Source: Alphaproteobacteria bacterium
GTDB taxonomy: Bacteria; Pseudomonadota; Alphaproteobacteria; UBA2966
Direction of reading: 5' to 3'
Assembly (NCBI GenBank): GCA_030740435.1
Contig: JASLXG010000066.1
Location: 24,603 to 88,602 of the forward strand
DNA length: 64,000 bases
How positions within the stretch are numbered: position 1 is the first letter of the stretch; each line of letters opens with the position of its first letter. Shown here one piece after another: positions 6,619 to 41,076 of this stretch. Both the position numbers and the translations under genes were made by a program. The notes beneath the pieces were generated by a model that saw nothing but the letters and a program-made list of their open reading frames with translations, had not been told where the DNA came from and did not search any database.

Positions 6619-6649
6619 CGGCGCCGGACGGGTGCGAGCGGAGAGGACC

Positions 6650-8764: not shown

Positions 8765-8768
8765 CCGC

Positions 8769-9746: not shown

Positions 9747-9752
9747 GGCACC

Positions 9753-10718: not shown

Positions 10719-12337
10719 TGGTTTCGCGCATCACCATGGCGCTGGGCTTGGGCCTTCTCGCTTTCGCGGTCTCGCCGGCCGAGGCCGCCGACGTCTCGCA
10801 GGATCCCCAGCCCGAGTTCACGGACGAGCTGCGGGCTGAAGGCCGGCAGATCTACTTCCAGCGCTGCAGCTTCTGCCACGGCCTGCTGGGCGACGGCGAG
10901 GGACCGGCGGCGCCCTTCATGGACCCCCGGCCGCGCGACTTCACGCTGGGCACCTTCAAGTTCCGCACCACCCAGTCGGGCGAGCTGCCGCAAGATTCAG
11001 ACATCTTCCGCACCGTCAGCCGCGGCCTCAGCGGCACCGCCATGCAGGCCTTCGACGACGAGCGCATCAAGAACGGCCTCAGCGAGCACCAGCGCTGGGC
11101 CGTGATCGCCTACATCCAGACCTTCGCCCAGGAGTTCGACGATGAGGAACTGGACCCGGTCAAGACCGGCAAGGTGGTGGCGCTGCCCAAGGACCGCCCG
11201 GCCTATGGCGCCGAAATCGTGGCCAAAGGCAAAGAAATCTTTCTCAAGGCCAAGTGCTGGGAATGCCACGGCAAGTCGGGCCGCGGCGACGGCCAAAAAT
11301 CCTTCGACCGCAAGGACGACTGGGGCTTTCCCATCCGCATCCGCAACGTCACCCATCCCTGGAAGATCAAGGCCGGCGACCGCGTCGAGGACATCTACAT
11401 GCGTTTCTCGACCGGCATCAGCGGCACGCCCATGCCGTCTTTCGTCAAGGCCCTGAGCGAGAGCGAACGCTGGCAGCTGGCCAACTTCATCAAGTCTTTG
11501 CAGATCCAGCGCACCAGCCACCAGGTGCTGAAGGCGCTGCGCCTGGAGGGCGAGCTGCCCGAGAGCCCGGATGATCCGCGCTGGAAGCAAGCCGAGCCCA
11601 TGGACGTGATTCTTACCGGGCAGGCCGTGGCGCCGCCGCGCTGGCAAAGCCCGTCGGTCGAGATGGTGACGCTGAGGGCCGTCTTCAATGACAACGAAAT
11701 CGCTTTCCGGCTGACTTGGGACGACCCCTTCAAGGACACCAAGCACGACGCCGGGCAGGAACTCGACGTCAAGGAGATCAGCGCCAGCGGCATCTACAGT
11801 TCATACGTCGACGTCAACGAGTTGGCGGTGCGCAAGCTGGAGACCTATCGCGACGCCGTGGCGCTGCAGTTTCCCGTGAAGCCCACCGAGGGCACCAGGC
11901 GGCCGCACTTCCTGCGCGGCTCGGCCTCGGATCCGGTGCATCTCTGGCTTTGGAAAGCCGATGAGGGCGCTGTCGAGGAAGCCGTCGGCCGGGGTTGGCG
12001 CCAAGGCCTGAGGCCGCAGCCCGAGGAGCAGCAGCAGGTCGCCGCCAAGGCCGCCTGGGACCAGGGGCGCTGGCAACTGGTGATGAAACGGCCCTTGCGC
12101 ACCGAGGACAAGAACGACGTCCAGTTCGAGGCCGGCCGCTTCATTCCGCTGTCGCTCAATGCCTGGGACGGCTCCAACGGCGAACACGGTTTGATCATGA
12201 GCCTCTCTAGTTGGTATTACGTCTTCCTCGAAGCGCCGACGCCGATCAGCGTTTACCTCTATACCATCCTGGCGATCTTGATCACGGGCGGTCTGGGTTT
12301 CTGGTTGATGAGAAAAGCTGAAGCGGAAGACGCCTAG
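10718..12337 (+). CDS. di-haem cytochrome c fused to EB_dh-like (ethylbenzene-dehydrogenase gamma/NxrC-like haem-b) domain with C-terminal TM anchor, module 1
   Basis: Signal peptide. CSFCH and CWECH in CcoP-like repeats (PRDFTLG, GTAMQAF / GTPMPSF). Then about 250 aa of beta-rich domain (VTLRAVFNDNEIAFRLTWDD...FIPLSLNAWDGSNGEHG). C-terminal helix VYLYTILAILITGGLGFWL. Confidence 0.65.
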   Translation: MVSRITMALGLGLLAFAVSPAEAADVSQDPQPEFTDELRAEGRQIYFQRCSFCHGLLGDGEGPAAPFMDPRPRDFTLGTFKFRTTQSGELPQDSDIFRTVSRGLSGTAMQAFDDERIKNGLSEHQRWAVIAYIQTFAQEFDDEELDPVKTGKVVALPKDRPAYGAEIVAKGKEIFLKAKCWECHGKSGRGDGQKSFDRKDDWGFPIRIRNVTHPWKIKAGDRVEDIYMRFSTGISGTPMPSFVKALSESERWQLANFIKSLQIQRTSHQVLKALRLEGELPESPDDPRWKQAEPMDVILTGQAVAPPRWQSPSVEMVTLRAVFNDNEIAFRLTWDDPFKDTKHDAGQELDVKEISASGIYSSYVDVNELAVRKLETYRDAVALQFPVKPTEGTRRPHFLRGSASDPVHLWLWKADEGAVEEAVGRGWRQGLRPQPEEQQQVAAKAAWDQGRWQLVMKRPLRTEDKNDVQFEAGRFIPLSLNAWDGSNGEHGLIMSLSSWYYVFLEAPTPISVYLYTILAILITGGLGFWLMRKAEAEDA

Positions 12338-12391
12338 GACGCGCTAGAGTGCGGTCCATCCGTATGGGGAGAGAAGTTTGGGAGAGCGAGT

Positions 12392-13054
12392 ATGAGAATA
12401 ATTTTTGCCTCATCTTTGGCGCTGGCGCTGAGCCTGGCCGCAAGTGGTCCGGCCCGGGCTGATGCGGCGGCCGGCAAGGCCGCCTTCGCGGCCCAGAAAT
12501 GCGAGGGCTGCCATTACACCGAAGGGCCGGCCAGGGAGAAGTCGATCGACGATCAGTTGGCCAAGAAGGGGCCTGAGCTGTGGTACGCCGGTTCCAAGTT
12601 CCAGGCGCCCTGGCTCGAGGCCTGGCTGCAAAAACCCGATGCCATCCGGCCGCTGAAGTACAACACGCTCGAACAAGAGAACCCCGGCGACCATCCCAAG
12701 CTTTCGGGCGGCGATGCCAAGAACGTCGCCGCTTTCCTCATGAGCCTGACCTCGGACGCTGTCAAGGCGGGCAAGGTCAAGGCCAAGAGGAACGCCAAGG
12801 GGCGCCTGATTTTCTCCAAGAAAATGCCCTGTTCCGGTTGCCACTCCTCCATCGGCCGCAAGAAGAAAGTCGGCGGCGGGCGTTCCGGCCCGACCCTGGT
12901 CGGGGCCGGCCAGCGCCTCAACCCGGACTGGATCCTGGCCTATCTCAAGACGCCCGACGTCTTCAAGCCGATCAAGGCCATGCCCGTGTTCGCCGGTATC
13001 CTGGGCGACAAGGACATGCTCAACCTGGCCCGCCACGTGGCCAGCTTCAAGTAG
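12392..13054 (+). CDS. periplasmic di-haem cytochrome c
   Basis: Signal peptide (ALALSLAASGPARA). CEGCH and CSGCH motifs. RBS GGGAGAG. Confidence 0.8.
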   Translation: MRIIFASSLALALSLAASGPARADAAAGKAAFAAQKCEGCHYTEGPAREKSIDDQLAKKGPELWYAGSKFQAPWLEAWLQKPDAIRPLKYNTLEQENPGDHPKLSGGDAKNVAAFLMSLTSDAVKAGKVKAKRNAKGRLIFSKKMPCSGCHSSIGRKKKVGGGRSGPTLVGAGQRLNPDWILAYLKTPDVFKPIKAMPVFAGILGDKDMLNLARHVASFK

Positions 13055-13074
13055 CCCGGCGGGAGGATAGAACC

Positions 13075-13443
13075 ATGAAAAGATTGACCACCGCCGCTGC
13101 CTTCTGCACCCTGGCGTTTGCCCTGGCCGTTCCTTCGGCCCAGGCCGCCGATGCCAAGAAGGTCTACAACTTCTATTGCGCCCAGTGCCACGGCACCGCC
13201 GGCAAAGGCAAGGGACCCAACGTCACCAAGGACTTTCCCGTCAGCCCGCGCGACTTCACCAATGCCGCCGAGATGGACAAGCTCTCGGACGCCGACATGA
13301 AGAACGTGATTCTGGATGGCGGTCCGGCGGCCTCCAAGTCGCCCATGATGCCGCCCTGGTCCAAGACCCTGAAGGGCGACGAGGTTGACGCTCTGGTCGG
13401 CTACCTGCGCAAGTTCTGCGGCTGCAAGGGCAAGCAAGGCTAG
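13075..13443 (+). CDS. periplasmic mono-haem cytochrome c (class I)
   Basis: Signal peptide (FALAVPSAQA). CAQCH, with distal Met candidates in SPMMPPW. RBS GGGAGGA 13061-13067. Confidence 0.8.
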   Translation: MKRLTTAAAFCTLAFALAVPSAQAADAKKVYNFYCAQCHGTAGKGKGPNVTKDFPVSPRDFTNAAEMDKLSDADMKNVILDGGPAASKSPMMPPWSKTLKGDEVDALVGYLRKFCGCKGKQG

Positions 13444-14023: not shown

Positions 14024-15880
14024 GTGACGCACAGCAAGGTTTTGACCGCCTGGCGCCCCTGGGTGCTGGCGGCTCTGGTGGCGACGCTGTTGCTGGCCCT
14101 GGTGCCGCTGCTGGGCAGCGCCCTGGATATCGCGTCGCCGGCCCTGGCGGCCGAAGGCGAGGCGGCGGCGGCGGCAAGCGGCGAGCAGGCGGCGGCCCCG
14201 GCCGGCCCGACCATCGCGCCGCCCAAACTGAAGAGCACCGACTATCCGGTTGTGGCCGGCGTCAACGGACGCATCTTCGTCTGGCTGGCGGCGCAATTGC
14301 ACCTCTGGTTCGCGGCCTTCGTGCTGGCCGTGCCGATCTTCGTCTTCATCATCGAAGCCATCGGCATGTACAGCCGCGACCAACGCTACGACAACATGGC
14401 CTACGAGTTCATCAAGGTCAGCATCACCGCCTATTCCCTGACCGCCATCCTGGGTGGCCTGTTGGCCATCGGCCTGATCGTTTTCTACCCGCACCTCTTC
14501 CAGTACATGTCCGGCGTCTTCAAGGAATCGATGGTCTGGTATGCGGTGCTGTTCTTCGCCGAAAGCGCCTGCCTTTACATCTATTACTACGGCTGGCACT
14601 GGCTGCAGGGCGGCTTCCGCAAGTGGGTTCATCTGACGCTGGGGCTGGTGCTGAATGGCGTCGGCACGACGCTGATGTTCCTGGCCAACGCCTGGCTCAC
14701 CTTCCAGATGAGCCCGGCCGGCGTCGATGCCGCCGGCCTCTATTCCGGCGACGTCTGGGCCGCCATCCACAATCCCTTGTGGAACCCCATCAACCTGCAC
14801 CGCATGATCGCCAACGTCGCCTACGGCGGCTCGGTGGTCGGCGCCTATGCCGCCTTCCGGTTTCTCTCGTCGCGCACGGCCGAGCTCAGGGCGCATTACG
14901 ACTGGATGGGCTACACCGCCAACTTCATCGCCATCAGCGCGCTCTTGCCGCTGCCCTTCGCCGGCTACTACCTGACGGCCGAGATCTACGCCTACAGCCA
15001 GCAGATGGGCATCACCCTGATGGGCGGCGTCTTCGCCTGGCTCTTCATCATCCAGGCGGTGCTGATCGGCACGCTGTTCCTCTCGGCCAACTATTATCTC
15101 TGGTGCGGCATGGGGCGCAGCGACGGGGCGCCGCGTTACAACCCCTATATCAAGTACATAGCCTTCGGTCTGGTGGCCTCGTTCCTGGTCTGGTTCACGC
15201 CCCACACCCTGGTGCTGACGAACGAGGAACTGAAGGCTCTGGGCGGGCCCTACCACAAGTACCTGGGGCCGCTGGGCATCATGCCGGCCAAGAACACGGC
15301 CGTGAACTACATGATCATCCTGACGGCGCTGAGTTTCCTGATTTACCGCCGCGCCAACAAGATCCCGACGGTAAGCTGGGTCAAGATCGGCAATGCCGTG
15401 CAGGTGGCCATGTTCACGGCCGCCGTCGTCAACATCCTTATCCTGGGCGTCTACCACGGCTACTTCACCAACACCGTCTACAAGGTGGCGAGCTCGATCC
15501 CCCAGGTGTTGACGACGCTGGTGGTGATCTTCGTCAGTACGCTCATCGACGTCTTCATGTACCGCGGCGCCAAGGACGTGGCGCCGCTGCATTGGGGCCG
15601 ATTGCCCGAACGCGCCCAGTACGCGCTCTTCCTGCTGGCCGTCTCGTTCACCTGGCTGATGGGCCTGATGGGCTACATCCGCTCGGGCATCCGCCAGCAC
15701 TGGCACGTGGTCGGCATCTTCCGCGACAACTCGGCCGACGCCTTCACGCCGACCCTGGCGGGCGGTGCCAATATCGTCTCTGTGGGGGTCATCATCTTCC
15801 TGGTGATGGTCATCTTCGTCTTCTGGGTCAGCCAGATCAGCGGCCGCAAGACCGAAGTGGCCGGATACTGGAGGACCTAG
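14024..15880 (+). CDS. CydA-like (cytochrome bd subunit I-like) polytopic membrane protein, module 2; no cydB partner
   Basis: 618 aa, about 14 hydrophobic segments. AAQLHLWFAAFVLAVPIF, AVLFFAESACLYIYYYGW, NLHRMIANVAYGG and MGLMGYIRSGIRQHWH are all shared with the module-1 paralogue. GTG start with GGGGGA 14015-14020. Confidence 0.65.
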   Translation: MTHSKVLTAWRPWVLAALVATLLLALVPLLGSALDIASPALAAEGEAAAAASGEQAAAPAGPTIAPPKLKSTDYPVVAGVNGRIFVWLAAQLHLWFAAFVLAVPIFVFIIEAIGMYSRDQRYDNMAYEFIKVSITAYSLTAILGGLLAIGLIVFYPHLFQYMSGVFKESMVWYAVLFFAESACLYIYYYGWHWLQGGFRKWVHLTLGLVLNGVGTTLMFLANAWLTFQMSPAGVDAAGLYSGDVWAAIHNPLWNPINLHRMIANVAYGGSVVGAYAAFRFLSSRTAELRAHYDWMGYTANFIAISALLPLPFAGYYLTAEIYAYSQQMGITLMGGVFAWLFIIQAVLIGTLFLSANYYLWCGMGRSDGAPRYNPYIKYIAFGLVASFLVWFTPHTLVLTNEELKALGGPYHKYLGPLGIMPAKNTAVNYMIILTALSFLIYRRANKIPTVSWVKIGNAVQVAMFTAAVVNILILGVYHGYFTNTVYKVASSIPQVLTTLVVIFVSTLIDVFMYRGAKDVAPLHWGRLPERAQYALFLLAVSFTWLMGLMGYIRSGIRQHWHVVGIFRDNSADAFTPTLAGGANIVSVGVIIFLVMVIFVFWVSQISGRKTEVAGYWRT

Positions 15881-15883
15881 GCG

Positions 15884-16702
15884 ATGATGAACTTCCTCAA
15901 GGTGGCCCTCTTCTCGCTGGTCGTCATCGGCTTTTTCGCGGGCTATTCCAACTGGGGCATCCCGCAGATCGAGCCGGCGGCGCCGCCGGTGGAAGAAGTG
16001 CTCGATCTGGGCGCCATGACCATGGACGACTTCATCGCGCTGGGCGGCAAGATCTACAACGGCAAGGGCACCTGCACGCTCTGCCACAATGCCGTCGGCG
16101 GCCGGGCGCCCATGCTCGATACCGCCGCCGGCCTGGTTGCCGAACGCCTCAAGGACGCCCGCTACAAGGGCGAGGCCAGCGACGCCGAGGGCTATCTGCT
16201 GGAATCGCTGGTCAATCCCTCGGCCTTCGTGGTGGCGGGCTTCGGCAAGAAGGGGACAGCCGATGCCGAAAGCCCGATGCCCGACGTCTCGGGCGGCTCG
16301 GTGGGCTTGAGCGAGGTCGAACTGGCGGCCGTGGTGGCCTTCCTGCAGGATCTCGGCGGCACCGATGTGACGGTGGAGATCCCCTCGGGCGCCCAGGCCT
16401 CCGACGAAAGCGGCGACGAGGAGGGCGAGCCCCGGGCGGCCTACGCCTCGATCGAGGAACTGATCGCCGAGCAGTCCTGCGGCGCCTGCCACAAGGTGGC
16501 CGGCGAGGAAGGCGACGTTGGTCCGGACCTCAACGGCATCGGCGCCAAGTACGATCGCGACTACCTGCGCCGTTCCATCCTCGATCCCAATGCCGACATC
16601 GGCCAGGGCTTCGAGGCCGACACCATGCCGGCGGAATACGGCACCACCCTCTATGCCCAGGAACTCGAAATGCTGATCGACTACCTGGCCAAACTGAAAT
16701 GA
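15884..16702 (+). CDS. membrane-anchored di-haem cytochrome c, module 2
   Basis: N-terminal TM helix. CTLCH and CGACH motifs. YLLESLVNPSAFVVAGF and DYLRRSILDPNADIGQGF blocks are paralogous to the 8769-9746 protein. Confidence 0.8.
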   Translation: MMNFLKVALFSLVVIGFFAGYSNWGIPQIEPAAPPVEEVLDLGAMTMDDFIALGGKIYNGKGTCTLCHNAVGGRAPMLDTAAGLVAERLKDARYKGEASDAEGYLLESLVNPSAFVVAGFGKKGTADAESPMPDVSGGSVGLSEVELAAVVAFLQDLGGTDVTVEIPSGAQASDESGDEEGEPRAAYASIEELIAEQSCGACHKVAGEEGDVGPDLNGIGAKYDRDYLRRSILDPNADIGQGFEADTMPAEYGTTLYAQELEMLIDYLAKLK

Positions 16703-16715
16703 GCAGGGGCGCGGC

Positions 16716-17483
16716 ATGAAAATTCCCAGGCTCCTGCTGTCGGTCATCACCGTCCTGGTCTTCTACGCCGCCTTCGAGGTGGTCTTCGGGCTGATCCTCG
16801 GGCAGCCCATCCCGGCCAGCCTGATGACCATGTACATGTTCTTCGTGGTTGCCGGCGTCTTCATGACGTTTACCTTCACCGAGGAAGGCGGCCGCGAGAT
16901 GGTGGCGCCGATCAAGGCGCTGGTCGAGGATCCCTCCAAACGCATGGTGCGCAACGTCGTCTTCGTCATCGTGCCGCTGCTGGCCGGTGGCCTGACGTAT
17001 TGGCAGATGCAGCCCTCCTTCGAGGCGCCGCTGGAGCTGCGTTCGATCCATCCGGCACCGCCCTCGAGCGCCAAGATCTACGGCAAGCGCTACGATCTGC
17101 TGACGCTGGAGAACCCGTTGCGCAAGTTCGAGAAGGAGGATCCCGAGAAGTTCCGCGAATTGGTGGCGGCGGGCGCCACGGTCTACATCGAGAACTGCCA
17201 GTACTGCCACGGCGACAAGCTCGATGGCCAGGGGCCCTACGCCCAGGGCCTCAATCCGGTGCCGCTCAACTTCCAGGACATCGGCACCATCGCCCAGCTT
17301 CAGGAATCCTACCTCTTTTGGCGCATTGCCACGGGCGGGCCGGGCCTGCCCAGCGAAGCCTCGCCCTGGCTCTCGTCGATGCCGGTGTGGCAGAGCTTCC
17401 TCAAGGAAGAAGAAATCTGGCAGGTCATCCTTTTCCTTTACGACTACACCGGCCACCGGCCGCGCTCATGGGAGCATGAATGA
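16716..17483 (+). CDS. 3-TM membrane-anchored mono-haem cytochrome c, module 2
   Basis: Three hydrophobic helices. CQYCH followed by FWRIATGGPGLPSEASPWLSSMP. Paralogue of 9753-10718. Overlaps the next gene by 4 nt. Confidence 0.8.
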   Translation: MKIPRLLLSVITVLVFYAAFEVVFGLILGQPIPASLMTMYMFFVVAGVFMTFTFTEEGGREMVAPIKALVEDPSKRMVRNVVFVIVPLLAGGLTYWQMQPSFEAPLELRSIHPAPPSSAKIYGKRYDLLTLENPLRKFEKEDPEKFRELVAAGATVYIENCQYCHGDKLDGQGPYAQGLNPVPLNFQDIGTIAQLQESYLFWRIATGGPGLPSEASPWLSSMPVWQSFLKEEEIWQVILFLYDYTGHRPRSWEHE

Positions 17484-19024
17484 TGGCTGCGGTGACGATG
17501 GATAAAGTGCTGCGGGCGCTGGGCGCCGGTATCGTGCTGGCCGCTCTTTCGGCGGGTGCCGCCCTGGCCGTGCCGGGCAATGCCGAGAAGGGCGAAAAGG
17601 TCTACCAGTTCCGCTGCCTGGCCTGCCACGGCGACGAAGGCGACGGCCTGGGCCCGGCTGCCGAGCGCCTCAACCCGCCGCCTCGGGACTTTACGCTGGG
17701 GATTTATAAGATCAAGACCAGCGCCTTTGACGAAGACGCGCCCAACGACGACGACATCTTCCGCATGATCAAGGACGGCATGCCCGGAACCGCCATGCCG
17801 GGCTGGTCGGACGTGCTCAGCGAGCAGGACATGTGGGACCTGGTGGCCTATCTCAAGGTCTTCGCCGAGATCGAGGAGGCGCCGGAGGGCCAGATCGACT
17901 ACGGCAAGCAGATCGAAAGCTCGGCCGACAGCATCGCCCGTGGGCGTGAAATTTTCCTCGATGGCGAGCGCTGCTCCGAATGCCACGGCCGTGAAGGCCG
18001 CGGTGACGGCATCAAGAAGCTCAAGGACGACAACGGCGCCCGCACCTGGCCCAGGAACCTCACCAAGGCCTGGACCTATCGCGCCGACAACAGCGCCAAG
18101 GAGATCTTCCGCCGCGTCACGGTGGGTATTCCCGGCACCCAGATGCCGGCCTTCGCCGATCCCAAGTCGAAAAAGAAACTGAGCATCGAGGAACGCTGGC
18201 ACGTGGCCAACTATGTGGCCTCGCTGGCCAAGACGGTGGAGGTCGTCAATCCCTCCAAGACGGTGATCGTGGCGGCCAAGCTCGAGGGCGCGCTGCCGGC
18301 CAAGGTCGACGACCCGAAATGGGCCGAGGCGGCGCCCGTGACCTTCATGCTGGTGCCCCAGATCATCGCCGAGGACAGGTTCTTCACGCCGGCCCACGAC
18401 AGCATCACCGCCCGCGCCTTCTATAACGACGAAGCGATCGCCATGCTGCTGGAATGGGACGACCGCACCAAGTCCTTGCCCGGGGACGACAAGGCGGCCC
18501 AGATCGCGGACGAGGAGCTGAGCTCCGACATGGTGGCCGTGCAACTGCCGGTGACGATTCCCATAAGCCAGGAGAAGCCCTATTTCCTGATGGGCGACAA
18601 ATCCCATCCCGTGAACTTCTGGCGCTGGTCCAGCGGCGGCAAGGAGGCGTCCCAGGGCGTCGAGTTGATGAACGCCACCGGGCCCTACGAGTTCGCCGAA
18701 CGCGACGCCGCCAAGACTGGTCTCACGGCCAGCGGCAGCTACAAGGACGGCACCTGGCGGGTAGTCATGACCCGGCCCTTGCGCACCGATGATGCCGAGG
18801 GCGACCTGCAGTTCGAGGAGGGCCGCTTCATCCCCGTGGCCTTCGCCAACTGGGACGGCTCCAACAGCGAAAGCGAAACCAGCCACACCCTGACGACCTG
18901 GTACTGGCTGCTGCTCGAGCCGCCGACGGGGACGCGGCCCCTGATCACGGCCCTGATCGTAGTGCTGCTGCTGGCGGCGGCCGAGATCTGGTGGGCGCGT
19001 AGCGCCCGTGGGTCCGATGCATGA
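17480..19024 (+). CDS. di-haem cytochrome c fused to EB_dh-like domain with C-terminal TM anchor, module 2
   Basis: CLACH and CSECH motifs. PRDFTLG and GTAMPGW/GTQMPAF blocks. Then ITARAFYNDEAIAMLLEWDD...FIPVAFANWDGSNSESE. C-terminal helix LITALIVVLLLAAAEIWW. Paralogue of 10718-12337. Confidence 0.65.
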   Translation: MMAAVTMDKVLRALGAGIVLAALSAGAALAVPGNAEKGEKVYQFRCLACHGDEGDGLGPAAERLNPPPRDFTLGIYKIKTSAFDEDAPNDDDIFRMIKDGMPGTAMPGWSDVLSEQDMWDLVAYLKVFAEIEEAPEGQIDYGKQIESSADSIARGREIFLDGERCSECHGREGRGDGIKKLKDDNGARTWPRNLTKAWTYRADNSAKEIFRRVTVGIPGTQMPAFADPKSKKKLSIEERWHVANYVASLAKTVEVVNPSKTVIVAAKLEGALPAKVDDPKWAEAAPVTFMLVPQIIAEDRFFTPAHDSITARAFYNDEAIAMLLEWDDRTKSLPGDDKAAQIADEELSSDMVAVQLPVTIPISQEKPYFLMGDKSHPVNFWRWSSGGKEASQGVELMNATGPYEFAERDAAKTGLTASGSYKDGTWRVVMTRPLRTDDAEGDLQFEEGRFIPVAFANWDGSNSESETSHTLTTWYWLLLEPPTGTRPLITALIVVLLLAAAEIWWARSARGSDA

Positions 19025-19260
19025 CGCCGAACCCGGCGGCTGACGACGAGGAGTTACGGGACGAGGAACCGGTCCGCGGCGTCAAGACGCGTATGATCGG
19101 CGCCGGCTTGATCTTTCTCGGCGTTCTCGACAGTCTGCTCAGTTGGCGGGGCGGTTTCGAGCCCAGCCTGTTTCATTGGTTTCTGATTGCCGCCGGCATA
19201 CTGGTTTTTGCCATCGGCGCGATCCGGCAGAGGCGGGACGCCGGGTCTCCGTCACCCTAG
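19021..19260 (+). CDS. small 2-TM membrane protein, translationally coupled to the preceding gene
   Basis: ATGA start/stop overlap at 19021-19024. Two hydrophobic helices (MIGAGLIFLGVLDSLL; FHWFLIAAGILVFAIGAI). Confidence 0.5.
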   Translation: MTPNPAADDEELRDEEPVRGVKTRMIGAGLIFLGVLDSLLSWRGGFEPSLFHWFLIAAGILVFAIGAIRQRRDAGSPSP

Positions 19261-19270: not shown

Positions 19271-20944
19271 ATGACTGCACCCGCGTCCAGCCAGCCAGCG
19301 CTGCAGGACGGTGCCCAGGCGTCGCCGCCCGACACGGCGCCGGTTTCCTTCAAGCGCTTCATCGTCGCCCTCGATGCTTCCGACCATGCCAACCGGGCGC
19401 TGGCCGAAGCGCTACGCCTCTCGGCCACGGCCGAGGGTGAGATCACCGGCATCCACGCCTATGCCGCGGCGCTGCATGACCGGCGCTTTCGCCAGATGGA
19501 AGGCGGCCTGCCCGAGCGCTACCTCGACGAAGAGGAAATGTCCTACCAGCGCGACGTCCACGACGACCTGATTACGCGCGGTCTCGACATCATCTCCGAC
19601 AGCTACCACGACCAGGCCGAGGCCGCCTGCGAGACGGCCGGGCTGCCTTATGCCCGCCTCAGCCCCGAAGGCAAGAACGCGAGCCGCATCGTCGAAGCCC
19701 TCGAGGCCGGGGGCCACGACGTGCTGGCCATGGGTGCGCTGGGCCTGGGAGCGGTGCCGGGCAGCCTGATCGGCACCGTCTGCGAGCGCGTGGTGCGGCG
19801 CTCGCCGATCGATGTGCTCGTCGTTCGCGATGTCGAACGGGCCATCGGCGAGGGGCCGGTGGTGGTCGGCCTGGATGGCTCGCCACAGTCCTTCGGGGCG
19901 CTGCTCACGGGCTTCGAGATGGCCCGCCGGCTCGGCGTCGAGCTGCATGCCGTGGCGGCCTACGACCCCTACTACCACTACGTCGCCTTCAACCGCATCG
20001 CCGGCGTGCTCAGCGACGAAGCCGGCAAGGTCTTTCGCTTCAAGGAACAAGAACAGCTGCACGAGGAACTGATCGACGAGGGCATCGCCAAGATCTATCA
20101 GTCCCACCTCGAGGTGGCGTCGCGCACGGCCAAGGATGCCGGCGTCGAGCTCGTCACCAAGCTCCTGGACGGCAAGCCCTTCAAGGCCATCGAGGCCTAT
20201 GTCCGTGAGGTCGGCGCCAGCCTGCTGATGCTGGGCAAGACCGGCATCCACGGCGACGCCATGATCGATATCGGCGGCAACACCGAAAACCTCTTGCGTC
20301 TCGCGCCCTGCCACGTCTGGATCGGCCAGGCCAGCCACGTGCCGGCGCTGGATATCGTCGCCGCCGAAAGCATCAGCTGGAGCCATGAGGCCGAGGCGCT
20401 GCTCAACCGCGCCCCCGAATTCGCCCGTGGCATGGCCCGCCAGGCGGTGATCCGCTTTGCCCATGCCCGGGGCAACACCTACATCACGTCGGATCTGGTC
20501 GAGCAGGTGGCGGCCAAGATGATGCCCGGCCGGGGCCAGGCGGAGGCGGCCGCGGCCAGCCCGGAAACGGTCTGGAGCGCCGCCGCCGAAGCCGAGCTGG
20601 CCAAGCTCGATGATGCCAACCAGGCCGCCGGTGTTCGCCTGCGGGCGGAAAAGCGGGCTCGCCGCGAGGGCGCGGCCGAGGTTGGCGCCGAGCACGTGCG
20701 GGCCTTTGTCGAGGCGCCGGCCGCGGCCACGCTGCCTTGGGCCGCGGCGGCGCTGGCCCGGCTGACCAGGGTGCCCGAGGCCATGCGCGATCGCACCCGG
20801 GCGCGCATCGAAGAGGTGGCGCGCGAGCAGGGCGCCACCGAGGTCACGCTGGCGATCTGCGAGCTGGGCCTCGAAGAGGCCCGCAAGGCCATGCACGAGG
20901 CCATGGTCAAAGGCGGTCACACCAAGACGGTCGAAGACGATTGA
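19271..20944 (+). CDS. tandem universal-stress-protein (UspA) domains followed by two PCP_red-like domains
   Basis: Two USP-like halves (FKRFIVALDASDHANRAL...VCERVVRRSPIDVLVV; VVVGLDGSPQSFGAL...NTENLLRLAPCHVWI). Two repeats of the W-x2-EA-x3-L-x3-P-x-(F/A)-x-R motif (ISWSHEAEALLNRAPEFARGMAR; LPWAAAALARLTRVPEAMRDRTR). RBS AGGAGAG before ATG 19271. Confidence 0.65.
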   Translation: MTAPASSQPALQDGAQASPPDTAPVSFKRFIVALDASDHANRALAEALRLSATAEGEITGIHAYAAALHDRRFRQMEGGLPERYLDEEEMSYQRDVHDDLITRGLDIISDSYHDQAEAACETAGLPYARLSPEGKNASRIVEALEAGGHDVLAMGALGLGAVPGSLIGTVCERVVRRSPIDVLVVRDVERAIGEGPVVVGLDGSPQSFGALLTGFEMARRLGVELHAVAAYDPYYHYVAFNRIAGVLSDEAGKVFRFKEQEQLHEELIDEGIAKIYQSHLEVASRTAKDAGVELVTKLLDGKPFKAIEAYVREVGASLLMLGKTGIHGDAMIDIGGNTENLLRLAPCHVWIGQASHVPALDIVAAESISWSHEAEALLNRAPEFARGMARQAVIRFAHARGNTYITSDLVEQVAAKMMPGRGQAEAAAASPETVWSAAAEAELAKLDDANQAAGVRLRAEKRARREGAAEVGAEHVRAFVEAPAAATLPWAAAALARLTRVPEAMRDRTRARIEEVAREQGATEVTLAICELGLEEARKAMHEAMVKGGHTKTVEDD

Positions 20945-20957
20945 GCATGGGAGGCTC

Positions 20958-22250
20958 ATGAACGCCCAGGCCCATATCGCCGAACCTCCCTTCCTGGTTG
21001 CCCTCAACCTGACGCGGCGGTGCAACCTGGCCTGCGCGCACTGCTACCTCGATGCCGGTACCCGGAGTGACGGGACGGCCGGCGAGATGGGCACGGCCGA
21101 GGTAACGGCGCTGCTCGTCGACATCGCGGCGCTGGACGACGAGACCATGGTGGTACTGACCGGCGGCGAGCCGCTGCTGCGCCGCGATATCGAGGATATC
21201 GCCCGCCATGGCGCCGATCTCGGCCTGATGGTGGTGCTGGGCTCCAATGGCACGCTGCTCGATGGTCCTCGCGTGGCATCGTTGGCGGCGGCCGGCGTGC
21301 GCGGCGTTGGCATCAGCCTCGATTCCCTCGACCCGGCCTACCACGACGGCTTCCGCGGCCGGCCCGGAGCCTGGGAGCAGGCCATGAACGGCATCGACGC
21401 CTGCCGCCGGAGCGGGCTCGGATTCCAGATCCACTTCTCGGCCACCGAGGAGAACGCGGCCGAGCTCGACGACATGATCGCCTTCGCCAAAAGTTCCGGG
21501 GCGCTGGTGCTGAACGTTTTTTTTCTCGTCTGCACCGGTCGCGGCGAGCGTTTCTCGGGCATCTCGGTGAAAACCTACGACCGGGTGCTGGAACGCCTGA
21601 CGGAGGCCGCCCACGACGATACGGGACCCCTGGTGCGGGCCAAGTGCGCGCCCCATTTCCGCCGCCTGGCGATCGAGCTCGATCCGGCCTGGGCGATCAC
21701 GCCGATGCACGGCTACGAGGCCGGTGGCTGTTTGGCCGGCAGCCGTTATTGCCGAGTCACCCCCGAGGGCGAGGTGACGCCGTGCCCCTACATCGAAGAG
21801 CCGGCGGGATCGCTCAGCCAGACAAGTTTCGCCGAGATTTGGCAGGGTGCCGAGCTCTTCGCCCGGCTGCGCCAGCCTGAGCTCGGCGGGCGTTGCGGCG
21901 TTTGCGAATACCGCCGTGTCTGTGGCGGCTGCCGGGCCCGGCCGGCGGCCCGCGACGGCGACCTGATGGGCGAGGATTTCCTTTGCGGCTACCAGCCCCG
22001 GGGCGGTGCCGTGATCGAGCCCCTGGTGCTGGCCGAGAGCGCTCTCGACTGGTCGCGCGAGGCGGAGCAGCGCTTGCGGCGCGTGCCCGCCTTCCTGCGC
22101 CGCATGGTGCGCCGCCGGGCCGAGGTTTTCGTGCGCGGCGAAGGCCGACAGCAAGTCGAGGCCGATGACCTCCAGACCCTGGCGCGGCGGCGCTTTGGCG
22201 AGGCCGGCCCGCCGCGGCCCGAATTTGACGGAGAGCGCCGTGAGCTTTGA
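20958..22250 (+). CDS. radical-SAM/SPASM enzyme (AhbD/NirJ-like) with C-terminal PCP_red-like domain
   Basis: CNLACAHC (C-x3-C-x2-C) near the N-terminus. Cys-rich SPASM-like region (CLAGSRYC...C...CGVCEYRRVCGGCRAR). C-terminal LDWSREAEQRLRRVPAFLRRMVRRR. Confidence 0.7.
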   Translation: MNAQAHIAEPPFLVALNLTRRCNLACAHCYLDAGTRSDGTAGEMGTAEVTALLVDIAALDDETMVVLTGGEPLLRRDIEDIARHGADLGLMVVLGSNGTLLDGPRVASLAAAGVRGVGISLDSLDPAYHDGFRGRPGAWEQAMNGIDACRRSGLGFQIHFSATEENAAELDDMIAFAKSSGALVLNVFFLVCTGRGERFSGISVKTYDRVLERLTEAAHDDTGPLVRAKCAPHFRRLAIELDPAWAITPMHGYEAGGCLAGSRYCRVTPEGEVTPCPYIEEPAGSLSQTSFAEIWQGAELFARLRQPELGGRCGVCEYRRVCGGCRARPAARDGDLMGEDFLCGYQPRGGAVIEPLVLAESALDWSREAEQRLRRVPAFLRRMVRRRAEVFVRGEGRQQVEADDLQTLARRRFGEAGPPRPEFDGERREL

Positions 22251-23637
22251 CGCAGCCATCATCGGCGGCGGCATCTCGGGCCTGGCCACGGCCGAGGAAC
22301 TGCGCCGGCGGGGCCGCTCGGTGGTGCTGTTGGAGCGCCAGGTGGCGGCTGGCGGCAAGGCCTTTTCGGAACGCCTGGGCGGCTTTCTCATGGAGCACGG
22401 ACCCAGCACCGTCGGTGCTCACGTCGCGGCGGCCACCGACTGGTCGCAGCGCCTGGAGTTGGAGACCGAGCGCTGCGAGCTGGGCCCCGCCGTGCGCCGG
22501 CGCTATCTGGTGGCCGGGGGGCGTCTCGAAGGTATGGCCAGCCATCCCTTCAGCCTGCTCAGCTCGGGTTATCTCTCGCTGCCGGCCAGGCTTCGGCTGC
22601 TGGCCGAGGTGGTGCTGCCCCGCGGCCGGGAGGGCGACGACGAATCGGTGGCCCAGTTCGCCCGCCGCCGCTTCGGCCGCGAGGTCGCCGAGCGCCTGGT
22701 CGATCCCCTGGTCGGTGGTATCTACGCCGGGCGGGCCGACGAGATTTCGCTGCGTGCCGCCTTTCCGGCGCTGCATGAGCTGGAGCGCCAGTACCGTTCC
22801 GTGGTGCTGGGCGTGGCGGCGCGGCGCTGGCGCGGCGGCCGCATGCCGGGCGGCCGGCTGTTTTCCTGGCGCCACGGCGTGGCCAGCCTGCCCCGGGCGC
22901 TGCAGCGGAACCTGGGCCAAGCCTTGCGTACCGGCATCGCCGTGCAGGGCCTGGAACGCGGGCGCCGGGGCTTTAGGCTGCTGACGCCAGAGGGTGAGCT
23001 TGAAGCCCGGGCCGTGGTCATTGCCACCCAGCCCCACATGACGGCGGCCCTGATCGAGAAGCTGGACCCGACCGCGGCCGAGGCCGCCGCCGGCGTGGCG
23101 GCGCCGTCGCTGGCCGTGGTTTATCTCGGCTACCGGCGCCAGCAGGTCGAACACGCGCTCGACGGGCTGGGCTTCCTGGCGGCGGCCGACGAAGGCCGGG
23201 CCCTCAACGGCGCCCAATTTTGCTCGACCATGTTCAGCCACCGGGCGCCGGCCGGCCACGTCGCCCTGGCCGCCTATTTCGGCGGTGCCCGCAATCCTGA
23301 TCTGGGCTTGCTGCCGGCCGACGATCTGGTGGCCTTGGCGCGGCGCGAGTTTGGCGATCTGGTCGGCGCCCGCGGCGAGCCGGTGCTGGCGCGGGTGCGC
23401 CACTGGCCGCGCGGTTTGCCGCAATACGCTGCCGGTCACGTCGAGCGGGTGCGGGATTTGGCGGCGCTGCCGCAGCGCCTGCCCGGCCTTTTCCTCACCG
23501 GCAACTATTTTCGCGGACCCTCCGTGGCGGCCTGTCTGGAACTTGCCGATGAGACCGCGGCCCGGCTCGACGGCTTCCTCGCCGGGCTAGGCGAGAGCAG
23601 CGACCGGGCCCCTATCAAGGCTGCCGCAAGCCGCTGA
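22240..23637 (+). CDS. FAD-dependent protoporphyrinogen/coproporphyrinogen oxidase (HemY/CgoX-type)
   Basis: GTG 22240, overlapping the upstream gene by 11 nt. Dinucleotide fold FDAAIIGGGISGLATAEEL. HemY-like blocks VDPLVGGIYAGRADEISL and LFLTGNYFRGPSVAACL. Confidence 0.7.
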   Translation: MSFDAAIIGGGISGLATAEELRRRGRSVVLLERQVAAGGKAFSERLGGFLMEHGPSTVGAHVAAATDWSQRLELETERCELGPAVRRRYLVAGGRLEGMASHPFSLLSSGYLSLPARLRLLAEVVLPRGREGDDESVAQFARRRFGREVAERLVDPLVGGIYAGRADEISLRAAFPALHELERQYRSVVLGVAARRWRGGRMPGGRLFSWRHGVASLPRALQRNLGQALRTGIAVQGLERGRRGFRLLTPEGELEARAVVIATQPHMTAALIEKLDPTAAEAAAGVAAPSLAVVYLGYRRQQVEHALDGLGFLAAADEGRALNGAQFCSTMFSHRAPAGHVALAAYFGGARNPDLGLLPADDLVALARREFGDLVGARGEPVLARVRHWPRGLPQYAAGHVERVRDLAALPQRLPGLFLTGNYFRGPSVAACLELADETAARLDGFLAGLGESSDRAPIKAAASR

Positions 23638-23663
23638 TCGGCGTCTTCGAAGGCCGGAAAGTG

Positions 23664-23689
23664 ACGCCCTTTTTGGGCGTTATTTTTTT
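23664..23689 (+). terminator. rho-independent terminator ending the island
   Basis: ACGCCC (23664-23669), loop TTTTT, GGGCGT (23675-23680), then TATTTTTTT. Confidence 0.7.
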
Positions 23690-23790: not shown

Positions 23791-24501
23791 ATGTCGCTCT
23801 TGGAAGAAGCTCCGGCGCCGCTCGGCCACAACAGTATTCCCTGCAGCGAAGAGCTGGTGAGCGACCGTGGGGGACGCAACAAAAAGCTGATTTTTCTTTA
23901 CGAAATTCGGTCGGAGGCTTTGCAAACCGTCGAGCGCGGCGAGATCGAAGCCGAGCACGAGGAGGACGCCTGGCGGCGCTTGCGCCTGCAACGCCTGGCG
24001 CCCAGGCTGCGCTCCAACACACGCATCTGGAGCAAGGTCGATGGCGAAAATGGCGAGCAGCGGAGGCGTTCGAACAAACTGCGGCGCCTGCTGCGCGCCC
24101 TGGCCAGCCACCACCGTTGGCTGACCGGCGGCGAGGGCGAACGCGCCGATCTCAGCGGTCTCGACCTGTCACGGGTATCGCTGCGCAATCGCGACCTGAG
24201 CCACGCCAACCTGGCCAGCAGCGATCTCAGCGAGGCCGATCTCAGCGGCATCCGCCTGGCCGGTGCCAACCTGGCCGGGGCAAATCTCTCGCGGGCCGAC
24301 CTTTCGGGGGCCAACTTGCGCGACGTCGATCTCAGCCATGTCAATTTCTGCCAGGCGGTGCTGATCGGCGCCGATCTCAAAGGCGCCGACCTGTGGCGCG
24401 CCAACCTCAGCGGCTGCGTCATCGCGCCGGCCAACCTGCACAGCGCGCTGGGCTGCCGCAAGGCGGTGGGGATGCACGAGGTGGAAGCCCCGGTTTCCTG
24501 A
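23791..24501 (+). CDS. pentapeptide-repeat protein
   Basis: C-terminal half is a run of A(D/N)LSx pentapeptides (ADLSGLDLSRVSLRNRDLSHANLASSDLSEADLSGIRLAGANLAGANLSRADLSGANLRDVDLSHVNF...). RBS GGGGGAGAG. Confidence 0.8.
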   Translation: MSLLEEAPAPLGHNSIPCSEELVSDRGGRNKKLIFLYEIRSEALQTVERGEIEAEHEEDAWRRLRLQRLAPRLRSNTRIWSKVDGENGEQRRRSNKLRRLLRALASHHRWLTGGEGERADLSGLDLSRVSLRNRDLSHANLASSDLSEADLSGIRLAGANLAGANLSRADLSGANLRDVDLSHVNFCQAVLIGADLKGADLWRANLSGCVIAPANLHSALGCRKAVGMHEVEAPVS

Positions 24502-24531
24502 ATTTTCTCTCCATTGTGATATCGTCCTGGC

Positions 24532-26739
24532 ATGAACAGGACAGATCGTCGGCGCCGGAAAAAGCTGGCAACCAAGGGCCGTTTCAAGCCCGGCGACGAT
24601 CTGACGCCGGCGCTCAAGCAGGCGGCCGAGTGGCACCGCGCCGGGCGGCTGGTCCAGGCGGCGGGGATCTACCAACGTGTTCTCGCCGCCGATCCCGATC
24701 AGGCCGACGTGCTGCACCTGTTGGCCACCATCGTCTATGAGCAGGGCGATGCAAAACGGGCGGTCGAGCTTTCCCGTCGTGCCGTGGCGCAGGCGGCGGC
24801 GAACCCCGACTACCTCAATATGCTGGGTACGGCGCTGCTCGCCCTGGGCCGGCTGCCGGAGGCCGAGACGAGTTTTCGCCAGGCCATCGCGGCGGCGCCG
24901 GGCGGAGCCGAATCGCACAGCAATTTTTTGGCTGGTGCTGCGCCGGCAGGGGCGTTTGTCCGAGGCCGAGGAATCGCTCGGGCGGGCCCTGGAACTGGCT
25001 CCGGAGTCGACCAAGATCCGCAACAACCTGGGCGTTACGCTCCTCGACCAGGGCAAGCCCGTGGCCGCTGCGGCGATCTTCGCCCAGGTGCTGGAGCGCG
25101 ATCCGGGCTATGCCGCGGCCCACAACAATCTGGGGCTGGCCCTGCTCGAGCGTGGTGACAGCGCCGCCGCCATCAGCCAGATGCGTCAGGCCATCGCTCT
25201 CGATCCCGGACTTGCCGACGCCCATTGCAACCTGGCTTCGACGCTGCTCGGCGAGGGCCGGCTGGATGGCGCAACGGAGCATATCGAGAAGGCGCTGGCC
25301 TTGGTGCCGGGCGATACCCGGGCCGAGGAGGTGGCGCTCAGGCACGCTTTGTTTAGCTGTCAGTGGAACCGCGCCCGGCAGCTGACGGCATCGATCGGGG
25401 CCGCCACCGATGCCTCCCTGGCGGCCCGGCGCCGGCCCGCCGAAAGCCCCTTTCTCAGCGTCATCCATGATCCCGACCCGCGGCGCAACCTGGCCATCGC
25501 CCAAGCCTGGTCGGCCGACCTCAACCAGCGCAGCGCCGCCGTCCTCGCGGGCAAAAAGGATCCGGCCGGATCTGCCCGCTCCGGATCCGAGCGCCTCGTC
25601 GTCGGCTACCTCTCCAACGATTTCTTCGAGCACGCCACGGCGCGCCTGATCTCCGGCTTGTTGGAGGCCCACGATGGCCGCCAGTTCGATATTAGGGCCT
25701 ACTCCTACGGCCCCGATGACGGCTCCGAGCTGCGCCGCCGCATCACTGCCGCCGCCACCGACTTCGTCGACCTCAGGGATTTCGACGACGCCGATGCGGC
25801 GCGCCGCATTGCCGACGACGGCGTCGACATCCTGGTCGATCTCAAGGGTTACACCCGGGGCGGACGCCTGGGCATTTGCGCCTGGCGGCCGGCGCCGCTG
25901 CAGCTCACGTGGTTGGGCTTTCCCGGCAGCACAGGCGGCGATTTCTTCGATTACCTGATTGCCGACAGCATCGTGGCGCCGCCGGCCGAGGCCGAAATGT
26001 TCAGCGAGACCCTGGCTTATCTGCCGGATTGCTATCAGCCCTGTGATGGCGGGCGAGAGCCACCGGGCGCGCCGGACGCGCCGGGTGTGCGGCGGGGCCA
26101 GCGCTCAGGGCCGATCTTGGCTTGCCCGAAGAGGGTCTGGTTTTCTGCTGCTTCAACCAGACTTACAAGATCGAGGCGGCGATGTTTTCCCGCTGGATGG
26201 CGGTGCTGGAGGCGCTGCCCGGATCGTCGCTCTGGCTGCTCGACGGCGGTCCCGGCTGCCGCGACAGTCTCGGCGCCGCGGCCCGGGCCGCCGGCATCGA
26301 TCCCGGGCGCCTGCTGTTTGCCCCCAGGATCGCCCAGGCGGCCCACCTCAGCCGCCTGGCCGTCGCCGACCTGGCCTTCGATACCTTCCCCTGCAACGGC
26401 CACACCACGACCTCGGACGCGCTCTGGGCCGGTGTGCCGGTGCTGACGCTGGCCGGCCGTCACTTCGCCTCGCGGGTCTCCGAAAGCCTGCTGCGGGCGC
26501 TGGAAATGCCCGAGCTGGTGGCTGCCGACCTGGACGCCTATGGCAAGCTGGCCATCAGCCTGGCGGAGGACGGCGAACGGCTGGCCGCCGTGCGCGCCAA
26601 GCTGGCGGCCAAGCGAAGGACGGCGCCGCTTTTCGACACGCCGCGCTTTGCCCGCAACCTGGAGGCGCTTTATCGCCAGGCCTGGCAGCGCCAGCTCGAC
26701 GGCCAGCCGCCGGCGCCGCTCAACCTTGCAGCACCCTGA
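24532..26739 (+). pseudogene. TPR-repeat / GT41 (SPINDLY/O-GlcNAc-transferase-like) glycosyltransferase, disrupted by two frameshifts
   Basis: The coherent protein is split over three frames. TPRs run in frame 1 up to ...AESHSNF. TPRs plus the GT41 N-lobe (LVVGYLSNDFFEHATARL...LQLTWLGFPGSTG) run in frame 2 after the T6 run at 24924-24929. The GT41 C-lobe (RADLGLPEEGLVFCCFNQTYKI...FPCNGHTTTSDALWAGVPVLT) is back in frame 1 after a shift near the G-run at 26094-26097. Confidence 0.75.
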
Positions 26740-36705: not shown

Positions 36706-36714
36706 GATCCGCCC

Positions 36715-37266
36715 CTAACCCAGCTTGACGGTGGTGTCGTCGAGGAACTCATATTTCGGCACCTCGAGGTTGGTCGGTGCCGGCCCCAGGCGGATGCGGC
36801 CCGAGGTGTCGTAGTGCGAGCCGTGGCAGGGACAGAACCAGCCCCCGAATTTGCCCTTGGGCTCGGTGTCCTTCTGGCCCAGCGGCACGCAGCCGAGATG
36901 GGTGCAGACGCCGACCATGACCAGCCACTGGGGTTTCTGCACGCGCTCGGCATCGCTTTCGGGATGCGGCAGCTCGGCGCCGTCGTCGGCCCGGGCCTGG
37001 GCGATTTCCTTCTCCGTGCGGTAGCGCACGAAAGCCGGCTTGCCGCGCCACTTGACGGTGATGGCCTGGCCCGGCTCGAGGGGCGAGAGATCGACCTCGA
37101 TCGAGGCCAGCGCCAAGACGTCGGCGGTGGGATTCATCTGGTCGATGAAGGGCCAGGTGGCCAGGGCGGTGCCGACGGCGGTGAAGGCGCCGGTCGCTAT
37201 ATAGAGGAAATCACGCCGGGTGGTGCCCTCGGCGGGATCGGAATCGGGTGTTGTGGTCGACATCAA
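36715..37266 (-). CDS. petA: ubiquinol-cytochrome c reductase Rieske iron-sulfur subunit
   Basis: CTHLGCVP and CPCHGSHYD boxes. TAT-like N-terminus (RRDFLY). Confidence 0.95.
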
Positions 37267-41042: not shown

Positions 41043-41076
41043 GGCCGTCATTTTCGTGGCGAATTCGGAGGTAACG

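Follow-up and report, generated by a model that had tools for sequence, protein, structure and literature searches.

A 64-kb stretch of alphaproteobacterial DNA (hereafter the window) carries, at positions 19271-23637, three plus-strand genes that form the 3' close of a 23-kb same-strand array starting at the window's left edge. They encode a tandem-USP protein ending in an array of PCP_red domains, a radical S-adenosylmethionine (SAM) enzyme with a SPASM region and a C-terminal PCP_red domain of its own, and a HemY-family FAD porphyrinogen oxidase (Table 1). Across phyla, the conserved unit is the pair formed by the USP-PCP_red protein and the radical-SAM-PCP_red enzyme, which is linked in several gene orders to cytochrome bd-like modules of the OR-N type, and HemY is a lineage-specific addition, present in Alphaproteobacteria and one other group. 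The interpretation that we favour, with a probability of about 0.45, is that Alphaproteobacteria have in this trio their own form of a conserved cassette that finishes tetrapyrroles without O2 and is dedicated to these OR-N-type complexes.

Domain calls were made with Pfam and family calls with NCBIfam (18,950 models). The radical-SAM enzyme has 482 relatives among GTDB species representatives, and the counts of species loci given here refer to the best 80 of these 482 matching species genomes, compared in a tblastn matrix; nearly all of the 80 loci belong to metagenome-assembled genomes of marine or groundwater Alphaproteobacteria, many of them from oxygen-minimum zones. Of the 74 loci with room for it, 73 have the USP-PCP_red gene immediately 5' of the radical-SAM gene, and HemY is encoded directly downstream in 73 of 78. 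The latter count leads us to reject HemY as an unrelated housekeeping neighbour, a possibility that an earlier, sequence-only reading of this DNA had set beforehand against its own proposal of a dedicated branch. That term is a fair one, as every locus with enough flanking sequence (70/70) holds a CydA-like module (45 loci), a cluster of two CCP genes, a Rieske gene, an AioA/IdrA-like molybdenum (Mo) enzyme gene and a HEAT-repeat gene (22 loci), or both (3 loci); the window itself has both. Of the 70 species loci, 48 have the four-gene CydA-like module beside the cassette, as do at least 21 metagenome loci, with three gene orders overall. The other recurring neighbours (SCO1/SenC, FGE-like, DUF420, CopD/DUF4149-like, COX3 and Mrp/NUBPL) have functions in oxidase or metal-centre biogenesis. 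A megablast comparison of the trio with plasmids gave no match.

The three genes are tightly packed. Between the USP stop codon and the radical-SAM ATG lie 13 nt, with the Shine-Dalgarno sequence GGGAGG, and the GTG at 22240 from which HemY is read has a GGAG 5' of it. Given this start, the radical-SAM stop codon (TGA, 22248-22250) falls within the HemY gene, producing an 11-nt overlap that recurs identically in the annotation of a relative locus (L001).

Outside the Alphaproteobacteria, a metagenome scan with diverse members of the clade returned 80 loci, and these together with loci L084-L086 make up a wider set, 27 of which have at least 4 kb on both sides. Among these well-flanked loci the USP-PCP_red gene is present in 23 and HemY in 5. 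The trio that the sequence-only reading treated as a unit holds as such in Alphaproteobacteria, whereas across phyla the pair is the core and HemY an add-on. Several arrangements tie the pair to bd-like genes: a 5.1-Mb contig (L086) has a CydA-like/c/c/EB_dh module followed by the USP-PCP_red and radical-SAM genes, with no HemY; in another locus (L169) the CydA-like module and the radical-SAM gene are divergent neighbours; and in soil and aquatic metagenomes the order USP, radical-SAM, CydA-like, c, c, EB_dh, CarboxypepD_reg recurs, the radical-SAM and CydA-like genes being some 100 nt apart. Longer fusions of the enzyme with two to three PCP_red copies occur in Nitrospinota and anammox Planctomycetota. 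In Nitrospinota the USP and radical-SAM genes stand as a pair alone, preceded once by DUF420. In Brocadia and Loosdrechtia a radical-SAM gene with three PCP_red copies is followed by a gene for a dCache/HAMP histidine kinase (L084:11939-14419; L167:12102-14006), beside which L084 additionally has a response regulator.

The radical-SAM enzyme matches the Pfam families Radical_SAM (E = 1.9e-23) and SPASM (E = 1.4e-8). The sequence-only reading had picked out its CNLACAHC motif, its Cys-rich SPASM region and the overlap with HemY, all of which are present, the last with the GTG 22240 start. The cysteines of the SPASM region are spaced C230-X27-C258-X17-C276-X36-C313-X2-C316-X5-C322-X2-C325-X17-C343, an exact fit to the motif described for AhbD, CX20-33CX17CX36-37CX2CX5CX2CX17-35C, which in M. 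barkeri AhbD comprises C223/256/274/312/315/321/324/342 (PMC10452713). All eight are invariant in an alignment of homologues from Alphaproteobacteria, Nitrospinota and anammox bacteria, a pattern implying two putative auxiliary 4Fe-4S sites.

In line with this spacing, the best match of the enzyme among all 18,950 NCBIfam models is AhbD (TIGR04545), at 292.9 bits against a cut-off of 500, in an alignment that runs end to end (residues 13-347 versus model positions 1-339). It scores 289 bits on NirJ2 (TIGR04055; cut-off 500), 245 on TIGR04053 (395), 175.8 on NirJ (TIGR04051; 515.45) and 146 on AhbC (650), and the best peptide maturase models reach 126 (WgkB), 124 (MftC) and 102 bits (PqqE). NirJ2 is an older name for AhbD-type proteins. 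These scores agree with the sequence-only reading in placing the enzyme with AhbD and NirJ2 rather than with the peptide maturases (293 and 289 versus at most 126 bits). A closer identification as AhbD stands only in part: AhbD-like is the best description by match, but the enzyme passes no curated NCBIfam cut-off, be it that of AhbD, NirJ2, NirJ or TIGR04053, and belongs to a PCP_red-fused clade of its own. In a HMMER scan of 1.84 billion cluster representatives, where the window's family is one representative, C-terminal PCP_red domains, 1 to 4 of them, are likewise present on the representatives that come next in similarity (40-54% identity), and the PCP_red-bearing relatives score 277-329 bits on the AhbD model. 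A neighbour-joining tree of the catalytic core of 117 representatives, computed without support values, places 25 PCP_red-bearing representatives within one 31-tip clade, apart from the representatives near or above the AhbD/NirJ2 cut-offs. The family is large, with more than 120 clusters at 64-88% identity, all having PCP_red.

Taken against AhbD/NirJ2, therefore, the cassette enzyme has the CX3CX2C motif and an identical eight-Cys SPASM spacing but differs in its separate clade, its 1-4 extra C-terminal PCP_red domains, its USP-PCP_red partner, its linkage to bd-like modules and the absence of ahbABC nearby; nor do nirS, nirF or nirN lie near the radical-SAM gene. Neither the radical-SAM nor the USP protein of the cassette has a curated NCBIfam model that names it. 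One Brocadiaceae record labels the radical-SAM protein 'nirJ 3'. A literature search found no paper on this domain combination or on its linkage to bd-like genes, and the literature on AhbD, sirohaem and nirJ in anammox bacteria yielded one nirJ paper, which concerns the nirJ of a nirS cluster, and nothing on the cassette.

The structural neighbours of the enzyme introduce a different, improbable explanation, in which it would be a protein or peptide maturase. Its target could be part of the CydA-like complex, either a small membrane subunit or a cytochrome; PCP_red would dock proteins, and the USP array would provide a scaffold or regulation. The nearest solved folds by sequence and fold search are SkfB, SuiB, PqqE and anSME, which are generic SPASM enzymes and include maturases of proteins and of ribosomally synthesized and post-translationally modified peptides (RiPPs). 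Small conserved open reading frames (ORFs) adjoin the cassette (19021-19260 in the window, ORFs of 38 to 72 aa in L001 and L003), FGE-like genes occur in some loci, and the variable-number PCP_red arrays resemble docking modules. To our knowledge, no structure of AhbD or NirJ has been solved. However, fold neighbours do not separate tetrapyrrole from peptide substrates here, because SuiB is also the fold nearest to the model of AhbD (PMC10452713), and the AhbD/NirJ2 models are ahead of any peptide maturase model by more than 160 bits. Additionally, the radical-SAM core begins at residue ~11, and the AlphaFold2 (AF2) model (predicted local distance difference test score, pLDDT, 87; predicted template modelling score, pTM, 0.86) has its barrel starting at residue ~13; by Pfam and the AF2 model, there is neither an N-terminal recognition domain nor a match to PqqD or to a RiPP recognition element. 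The HemY partner and the BchB-type PCP_red domain likewise point to tetrapyrroles. An anSME-type function, suggested by the FGE-like neighbours, was rejected in its turn, as no anSME model is among the 25 best-scoring of the 65 NCBIfam families matched by the enzyme. The ORF at 19021-19260, with two predicted transmembrane (TM) segments, has a counterpart of ~75 aa at the same position in 24 loci by protein clustering, lacks any Pfam match, and may encode a small subunit of the complex.

The domain shared by both members of the pair, PCP_red (PF08369), is the C-terminal domain of BchB/ChlB of the dark protochlorophyllide reductase. Pfam finds it where the sequence-only reading had described the repeat, twice on the tandem-USP protein (E = 9.5e-23; 80.4 bits against a cut-off of 32.5, in two stretches) and once at the C-terminus of the radical-SAM enzyme. 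The three copies have ~29% pairwise identity and the common motif W-x2-(E/A)A-x3-L-x-R-x-P. In phmmer searches, copy 2 of the USP protein aligns to residues 455-502 of BchB (2XDQ_B) and the copy of the radical-SAM enzyme to the BchB structure 2KRU; in the AF2 model the latter is a three-helix unit (helices 367-374, 378-394 and 402-413; pLDDT about 80-91). As in BchB/ChlB, then, this is a small helical domain, above the gathering score in three places here. Unlike in BchB/ChlB, it is detached from the nitrogenase-like BchB body and stands in tandem arrays of 1-5 or alone, and no chlorophyll pathway genes lie near the cassette. By analogy with BchB, PCP_red would have a tetrapyrrole-capping or tetrapyrrole-binding role.

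The number of PCP_red copies varies among relatives, with 1-4 on the radical-SAM enzymes and 3-5 on the USP partners (1-5 across the wider clade). Four PCP_red units also form a protein by themselves in one locus, and some USP proteins have five (L127:11525-12625; L114:8201-10498). Since copy number shifts between USP proteins, enzyme and stand-alone protein, the USP array and the enzyme can be taken to act together, an argument of the domain-fusion kind. In two loci of other lineages (L104:5091-11860; L155:5655-12667) three PCP_red copies and a rubredoxin-like domain are found on the USP-PCP_red protein. Beside it, L104 encodes a UbiE-type methyltransferase and a B12-binding radical-SAM enzyme, and L155 COX3 and an Mrp/NUBPL Fe-S carrier.

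The USP part of the protein scores 103.6 bits against a Pfam cut-off of 24 (Usp, E = 1.7e-29, two stretches). USP domain 1 has a nucleotide-binding-type motif, G-x2-G-x9-G-T (GALGLGAVPGSLIGT), as read from the sequence, and the USP core is highly conserved among orthologues; matches to solved tandem-USP structures such as Rv2623 are weak. Domains of the USP type commonly bind nucleotides and serve in stress responses or regulation, and a dCache histidine kinase gene follows the radical-SAM gene in Brocadia and Loosdrechtia, which would suit a sensor or regulator that monitors tetrapyrroles or the energy state and governs assembly or expression accordingly, the enzymes being secondary. We consider this most improbable, as the USP-PCP_red protein has no DNA-binding or signalling output domain, its strict pairing and domain fusions with the enzyme argue against a purely regulatory role, and the rubredoxin-like domain on some USP partners suggests electron transfer. 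Nothing speaks specifically for redox sensing, which the sequence-only reading had offered as one of two functions.

The third protein of the trio (22165/22240-23637) matches Amino_oxidase in Pfam (E = 1.2e-48), carries the FAD dinucleotide-binding motif IIGGGISGL and scores well above the cut-off of the protoporphyrinogen oxidase model TIGR00562 (220.7 bits versus 97.85). Its best solved relative is the protoporphyrinogen oxidase (PPO) of M. xanthus, a PgoX (2IVD; 266 bits, residues 4-440), compared with 177 bits for the CgoX-type HemY of B. subtilis (3I6D), 103 for human PgoX and 85 for the Exiguobacterium enzyme. It aligns full-length with the solved PPOs, and differs from these PgoX and CgoX enzymes in being translationally coupled to a radical-SAM enzyme and present only in some cassette lineages. 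The conserved Arg region in the PDB alignments does not discriminate CgoX from PgoX, and the bit-score ranking follows phylogeny and not only substrate; read with that caution, the greater closeness to PgoX leans against CgoX. The route that the sequence-only reading had built from a CgoX-like oxidase and an AhbD-like enzyme finds no backing here, as the loci also lack a ferrochelatase and ChdC, although a ferrochelatase could lie elsewhere in the genome.

Coproporphyrinogen decarboxylation and protoporphyrinogen oxidation are consecutive steps of the protoporphyrin route, which suggests another assignment: the radical-SAM enzyme would decarboxylate metal-free coproporphyrinogen III to protoporphyrinogen IX in a HemN-like bypass, PCP_red would hold the labile porphyrinogen, and HemY, as a PgoX, would oxidise the product, the intermediate being channelled from one enzyme to the other. 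The nearness of HemY to Myxococcus PgoX and the conservation of the 11-nt overlap in relatives are consistent with such a sequence of steps, and no ferrochelatase would be needed in the cassette. It is nevertheless decidedly unlikely, given that the characterised AhbC/AhbD/NirJ clade members all act on iron tetrapyrroles (PMC13564367, PMC10452713), that most lineages have the pair without HemY, and that the linkage to CydA-like modules would be left unexplained.

The genetic partner of the cassette in the window is 'module 2' (14024-19024). The OR-N family of cytochrome bd-like proteins was described by Murali et al. (bioRxiv 10.1101/2021.01.16.426971), who mention no radical-SAM, USP or HemY cassette. 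By their match to the CydA model and their operon content, the partner modules resemble the OR-N complexes: of that model, their long CydA-like proteins cover just the N-terminal part, and the same operons encode cytochromes c and alternative enzymes for electron donation. OR-N complexes are widespread, occurring in nitrite oxidisers, anammox bacteria and manganese oxidisers, and the present loci add the Alphaproteobacteria of oxygen-minimum zones.

The second kind of partner is the Mo-enzyme cluster, which in the window begins the array. By gene content, the segment 33-3521, read together with the two CCPs that relatives have upstream of the Rieske and Mo-subunit genes, looks like the idrP1-P2-B-A arrangement of iodate reductases. 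The idr neighbourhood has been reported as poorly conserved, in a paper that does not mention the cassette (Reyes-Umana et al., PMC8692401); contrary to that published picture, the surroundings of the idrABP1P2-like cluster are not poorly conserved in the cassette lineages. The HEAT-repeat protein has weak matches to the phycobilin-lyase-type HEAT proteins NblB and CpcE, and its gene lies between the Mo enzyme and the cassette in at least 22 loci; it could be another tetrapyrrole- or cofactor-handling factor. In the window, the idr-like cluster is joined with two bd-like modules in one operon.

From these observations we infer a substrate, a product, roles for the PCP_red and USP domains and a destination for the cofactor. 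The AhbD-like radical-SAM enzyme would cleave SAM to yield a 5'-deoxyadenosyl radical that takes a hydrogen from one of the propionate side chains on an (iron) tetrapyrrole; the two auxiliary 4Fe-4S clusters would carry the electron away, CO2 would be lost, and the outcome would be a haem finished or tailored without O2. The PCP_red domains, after the example of BchB, would be tetrapyrrole lids or hand-over units in a relay, and the USP-PCP_red protein a nucleotide-binding carrier or scaffold and, in those lineages where it bears a rubredoxin-like domain, a redox partner. HemY, which is translationally coupled to the enzyme, would supply oxidised porphyrin where the host's normal route lacks the substrate of the radical-SAM enzyme, and the product would serve the CydA-like complexes. 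In its combination of a HemY-type oxidase and an AhbD-type enzyme outside the sirohaem pathway, the cassette recalls the coproporphyrin-dependent pathway of Gram-positives with AhbD in place of ChdC; AhbD homologues outside the sirohaem pathway are indeed known in Gram-positives (PMC13564367). It departs from that pathway in lacking CpfC, in its alphaproteobacterial host and in a HemY that is nearer PgoX and dispensable in other lineages. In a variant along the coproporphyrin route, hosts might require HemY only if their protoporphyrin route leaves the radical-SAM enzyme without its substrate.

Several points weigh against the cassette as we read it. A CydA-like module is found in only 10 of the 27 well-flanked loci of the wider clade; no such module lies within 10 kb of the Nitrospinota pair, and neither a USP gene nor a bd-like module within 10 kb of the radical-SAM gene in Brocadia and Loosdrechtia. 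Scores below the AhbD, NirJ2 and TIGR04053 cut-offs do not guarantee the same chemistry, and the tree that sets the clade apart is the one without support values. Neither the window nor the annotated loci of relatives hold ahbA, ahbB or ahbC, or any ferrochelatase or ChdC domain, and the window is likewise without hemN, hemF, hemJ and hemH. With a PgoX as the nearest relative of HemY, this oxidase and the AhbD-type enzyme would probably not act on consecutive intermediates. The role proposed for PCP_red has its likeness to BchB as its one source, and the interpretation as a whole comes from sequence and gene linkage.

An ordinary extra supply of haem b is an unlikely but still serious alternative. 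Here, an O2-independent coproheme decarboxylase (an AhbD isozyme) and a porphyrinogen oxidase would make no special cofactor, and their co-expression with a haem-rich respiratory operon would raise the output of haem b and haem c at low O2; this corresponds to the main proposal of the sequence-only reading. AhbD is the top family match and the SPASM motif is identical; AhbD homologues are known from organisms that otherwise have no Ahb pathway (PMC13564367); numerous sites for haem c and haem b are encoded in the operon; and the hosts come from oxygen-minimum zones and groundwater. However, the scores fall under the equivalog cut-offs in a distinct clade, the loci hold no ferrochelatase to make coproheme, and HemY is PgoX-like. 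Moreover, other haem-rich systems carry no private haem synthases, the Brocadiaceae label 'nirJ 3' hints at a paralogue besides other NirJ-like genes, and the retention of the CydA-like linkage across phyla in several gene orders points to a specific requirement. Even if the cassette proved to be only an extra haem b synthase, annotations in hundreds of genomes would be corrected.

A dedicated tetrapyrrole-finishing cassette, the interpretation preferred here, also has a bolder form, which we regard as rather unlikely: the pair would be a cross-phylum maturation system giving a non-canonical haem to the OR-N active site without O2. The product would possibly be, for example, a partly decarboxylated or side-chain-tailored derivative of coproheme or haem b, with HemY recruited to feed the PCP_red relay in hosts that use the protoporphyrin route, as these Alphaproteobacteria would. 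The cross-phylum linkage strengthens the support for a possible special haem in the CydA-like proteins, the second proposal of the sequence-only reading.

A conserved tetrapyrrole cassette would offer a testable handle on the cofactor chemistry of the OR-N bd-like complexes. The comparison also delimits a new clade of AhbD-like radical-SAM enzymes with fused PCP_red and places the orphan PCP_red domain, for the first time, in a functional setting other than chlorophyll synthesis. Additionally, the link to the iodate-reductase-like cluster suggests that the respiratory unit is larger and bears on the cycling of iodine and oxygen in the sea.

Table 1. Features of the trio, its domains and the same-strand array in the window
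Feature	Position	Strand	Details
Partial dihaem peroxidase (CCP/MauG-like), 3' end	33-230	+	Array start
Rieske subunit	227-835	+	115 bits versus cut-off 95.65
AioA/IdrA-type Mo subunit	849-3521	+	arsenite_ox_L, 401 bits versus cut-off 359
HEAT-repeat protein	3608-5803	+	731 aa, cytoplasmic, no signal peptide
CydA-like protein ('module 2')	14024-15880	+	Pfam
Cytochrome c ('module 2')	15884-16702	+	Pfam
Cytochrome c ('module 2')	16716-17483	+	Pfam
Dihaem c + EB_dh ('module 2')	17480-19024	+	Pfam
Two-TM ORF	19021-19260	+	79 aa; directly 5' of the trio; ATG overlaps the dihaem-c/EB_dh stop
Tandem-USP protein with C-terminal PCP_red array	19271-20944	+	557 aa, cytoplasmic; Pfam
PCP_red copy 1, USP protein	20378-20506 (aa 370-412)	+	Best Pfam stretch; custom PCP_red hidden Markov model (HMM) i-E 9.6e-26
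Degenerate PCP_red-like unit, USP protein	20573-20707 (aa 435-479)	+	Custom PCP_red HMM i-E 6e-6
PCP_red copy 2, USP protein	20726-20863 (aa 486-531)	+	Second Pfam stretch; custom HMM i-E 1.4e-20
AhbD-like radical-SAM/SPASM enzyme with C-terminal PCP_red	20958-22250	+	430 aa; Pfam, NCBIfam
CX3CX2C radical-SAM cluster motif CNLACAHC	21021-21044 (aa 22-29)	+	Invariant in two homologue alignments
Full eight-Cys SPASM region	21645-21986	+	C230, C258, C276, C313, C316, C322, C325, C343
PCP_red, radical-SAM enzyme	22050-22175 (aa 365-406)	+	Pfam E = 6e-12, 45.8 bits versus cut-off 32.5
HemY-family FAD porphyrinogen oxidase	22240-23637 (ORF from 22165)	+	465 aa from GTG 22240; TIGR00562
Terminator-like hairpin with T-run	23654-23686	+	AT-rich spacer; end of the long plus-strand array

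Some genes that recur beside the cassette in relatives are missing from the window, namely those for FGE-sulfatase-like (NirV-like), SCO1/SenC and CarboxypepD_reg/fn3 proteins (L010:8156-8893; L003:12771-13397; L002:13807-14625), the SCO1/SenC copper chaperone standing directly after HemY. Copper factors of this kind near the cassette agree with the copper site that has been proposed for bd-like oxidases. In two relatives, a 38-aa ORF (L001:1844-1960; L003:2471-2587) that recalls the CydX-type small subunits immediately precedes the CydA-like gene. The second bd-like module of the window, 'module 1' (6455-13443, plus strand), has a longer CydA-like protein of 769 aa matching only positions 3-117 of the CydA model, and extra cytochrome c genes lie between the modules (12392-13054, plus an overlapping putative ORF at 12580-13443).

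Directly past the operon terminator, the plus strand at 23791-26446 encodes a pentapeptide-repeat protein and then a TPR + GT41 glycosyltransferase, whose gene looks split or frameshifted between 24532-25158 and 24677-26446. Further downstream of the array lie a MoxR/DUF58/BatA-DUF4159 cluster (41041-45796, plus strand) and a canonical bc1 operon on the minus strand (Rieske, cyt b and cyt c1; 34682-37266), from which it follows that the organism has a normal bc1 complex besides the bd-like modules.

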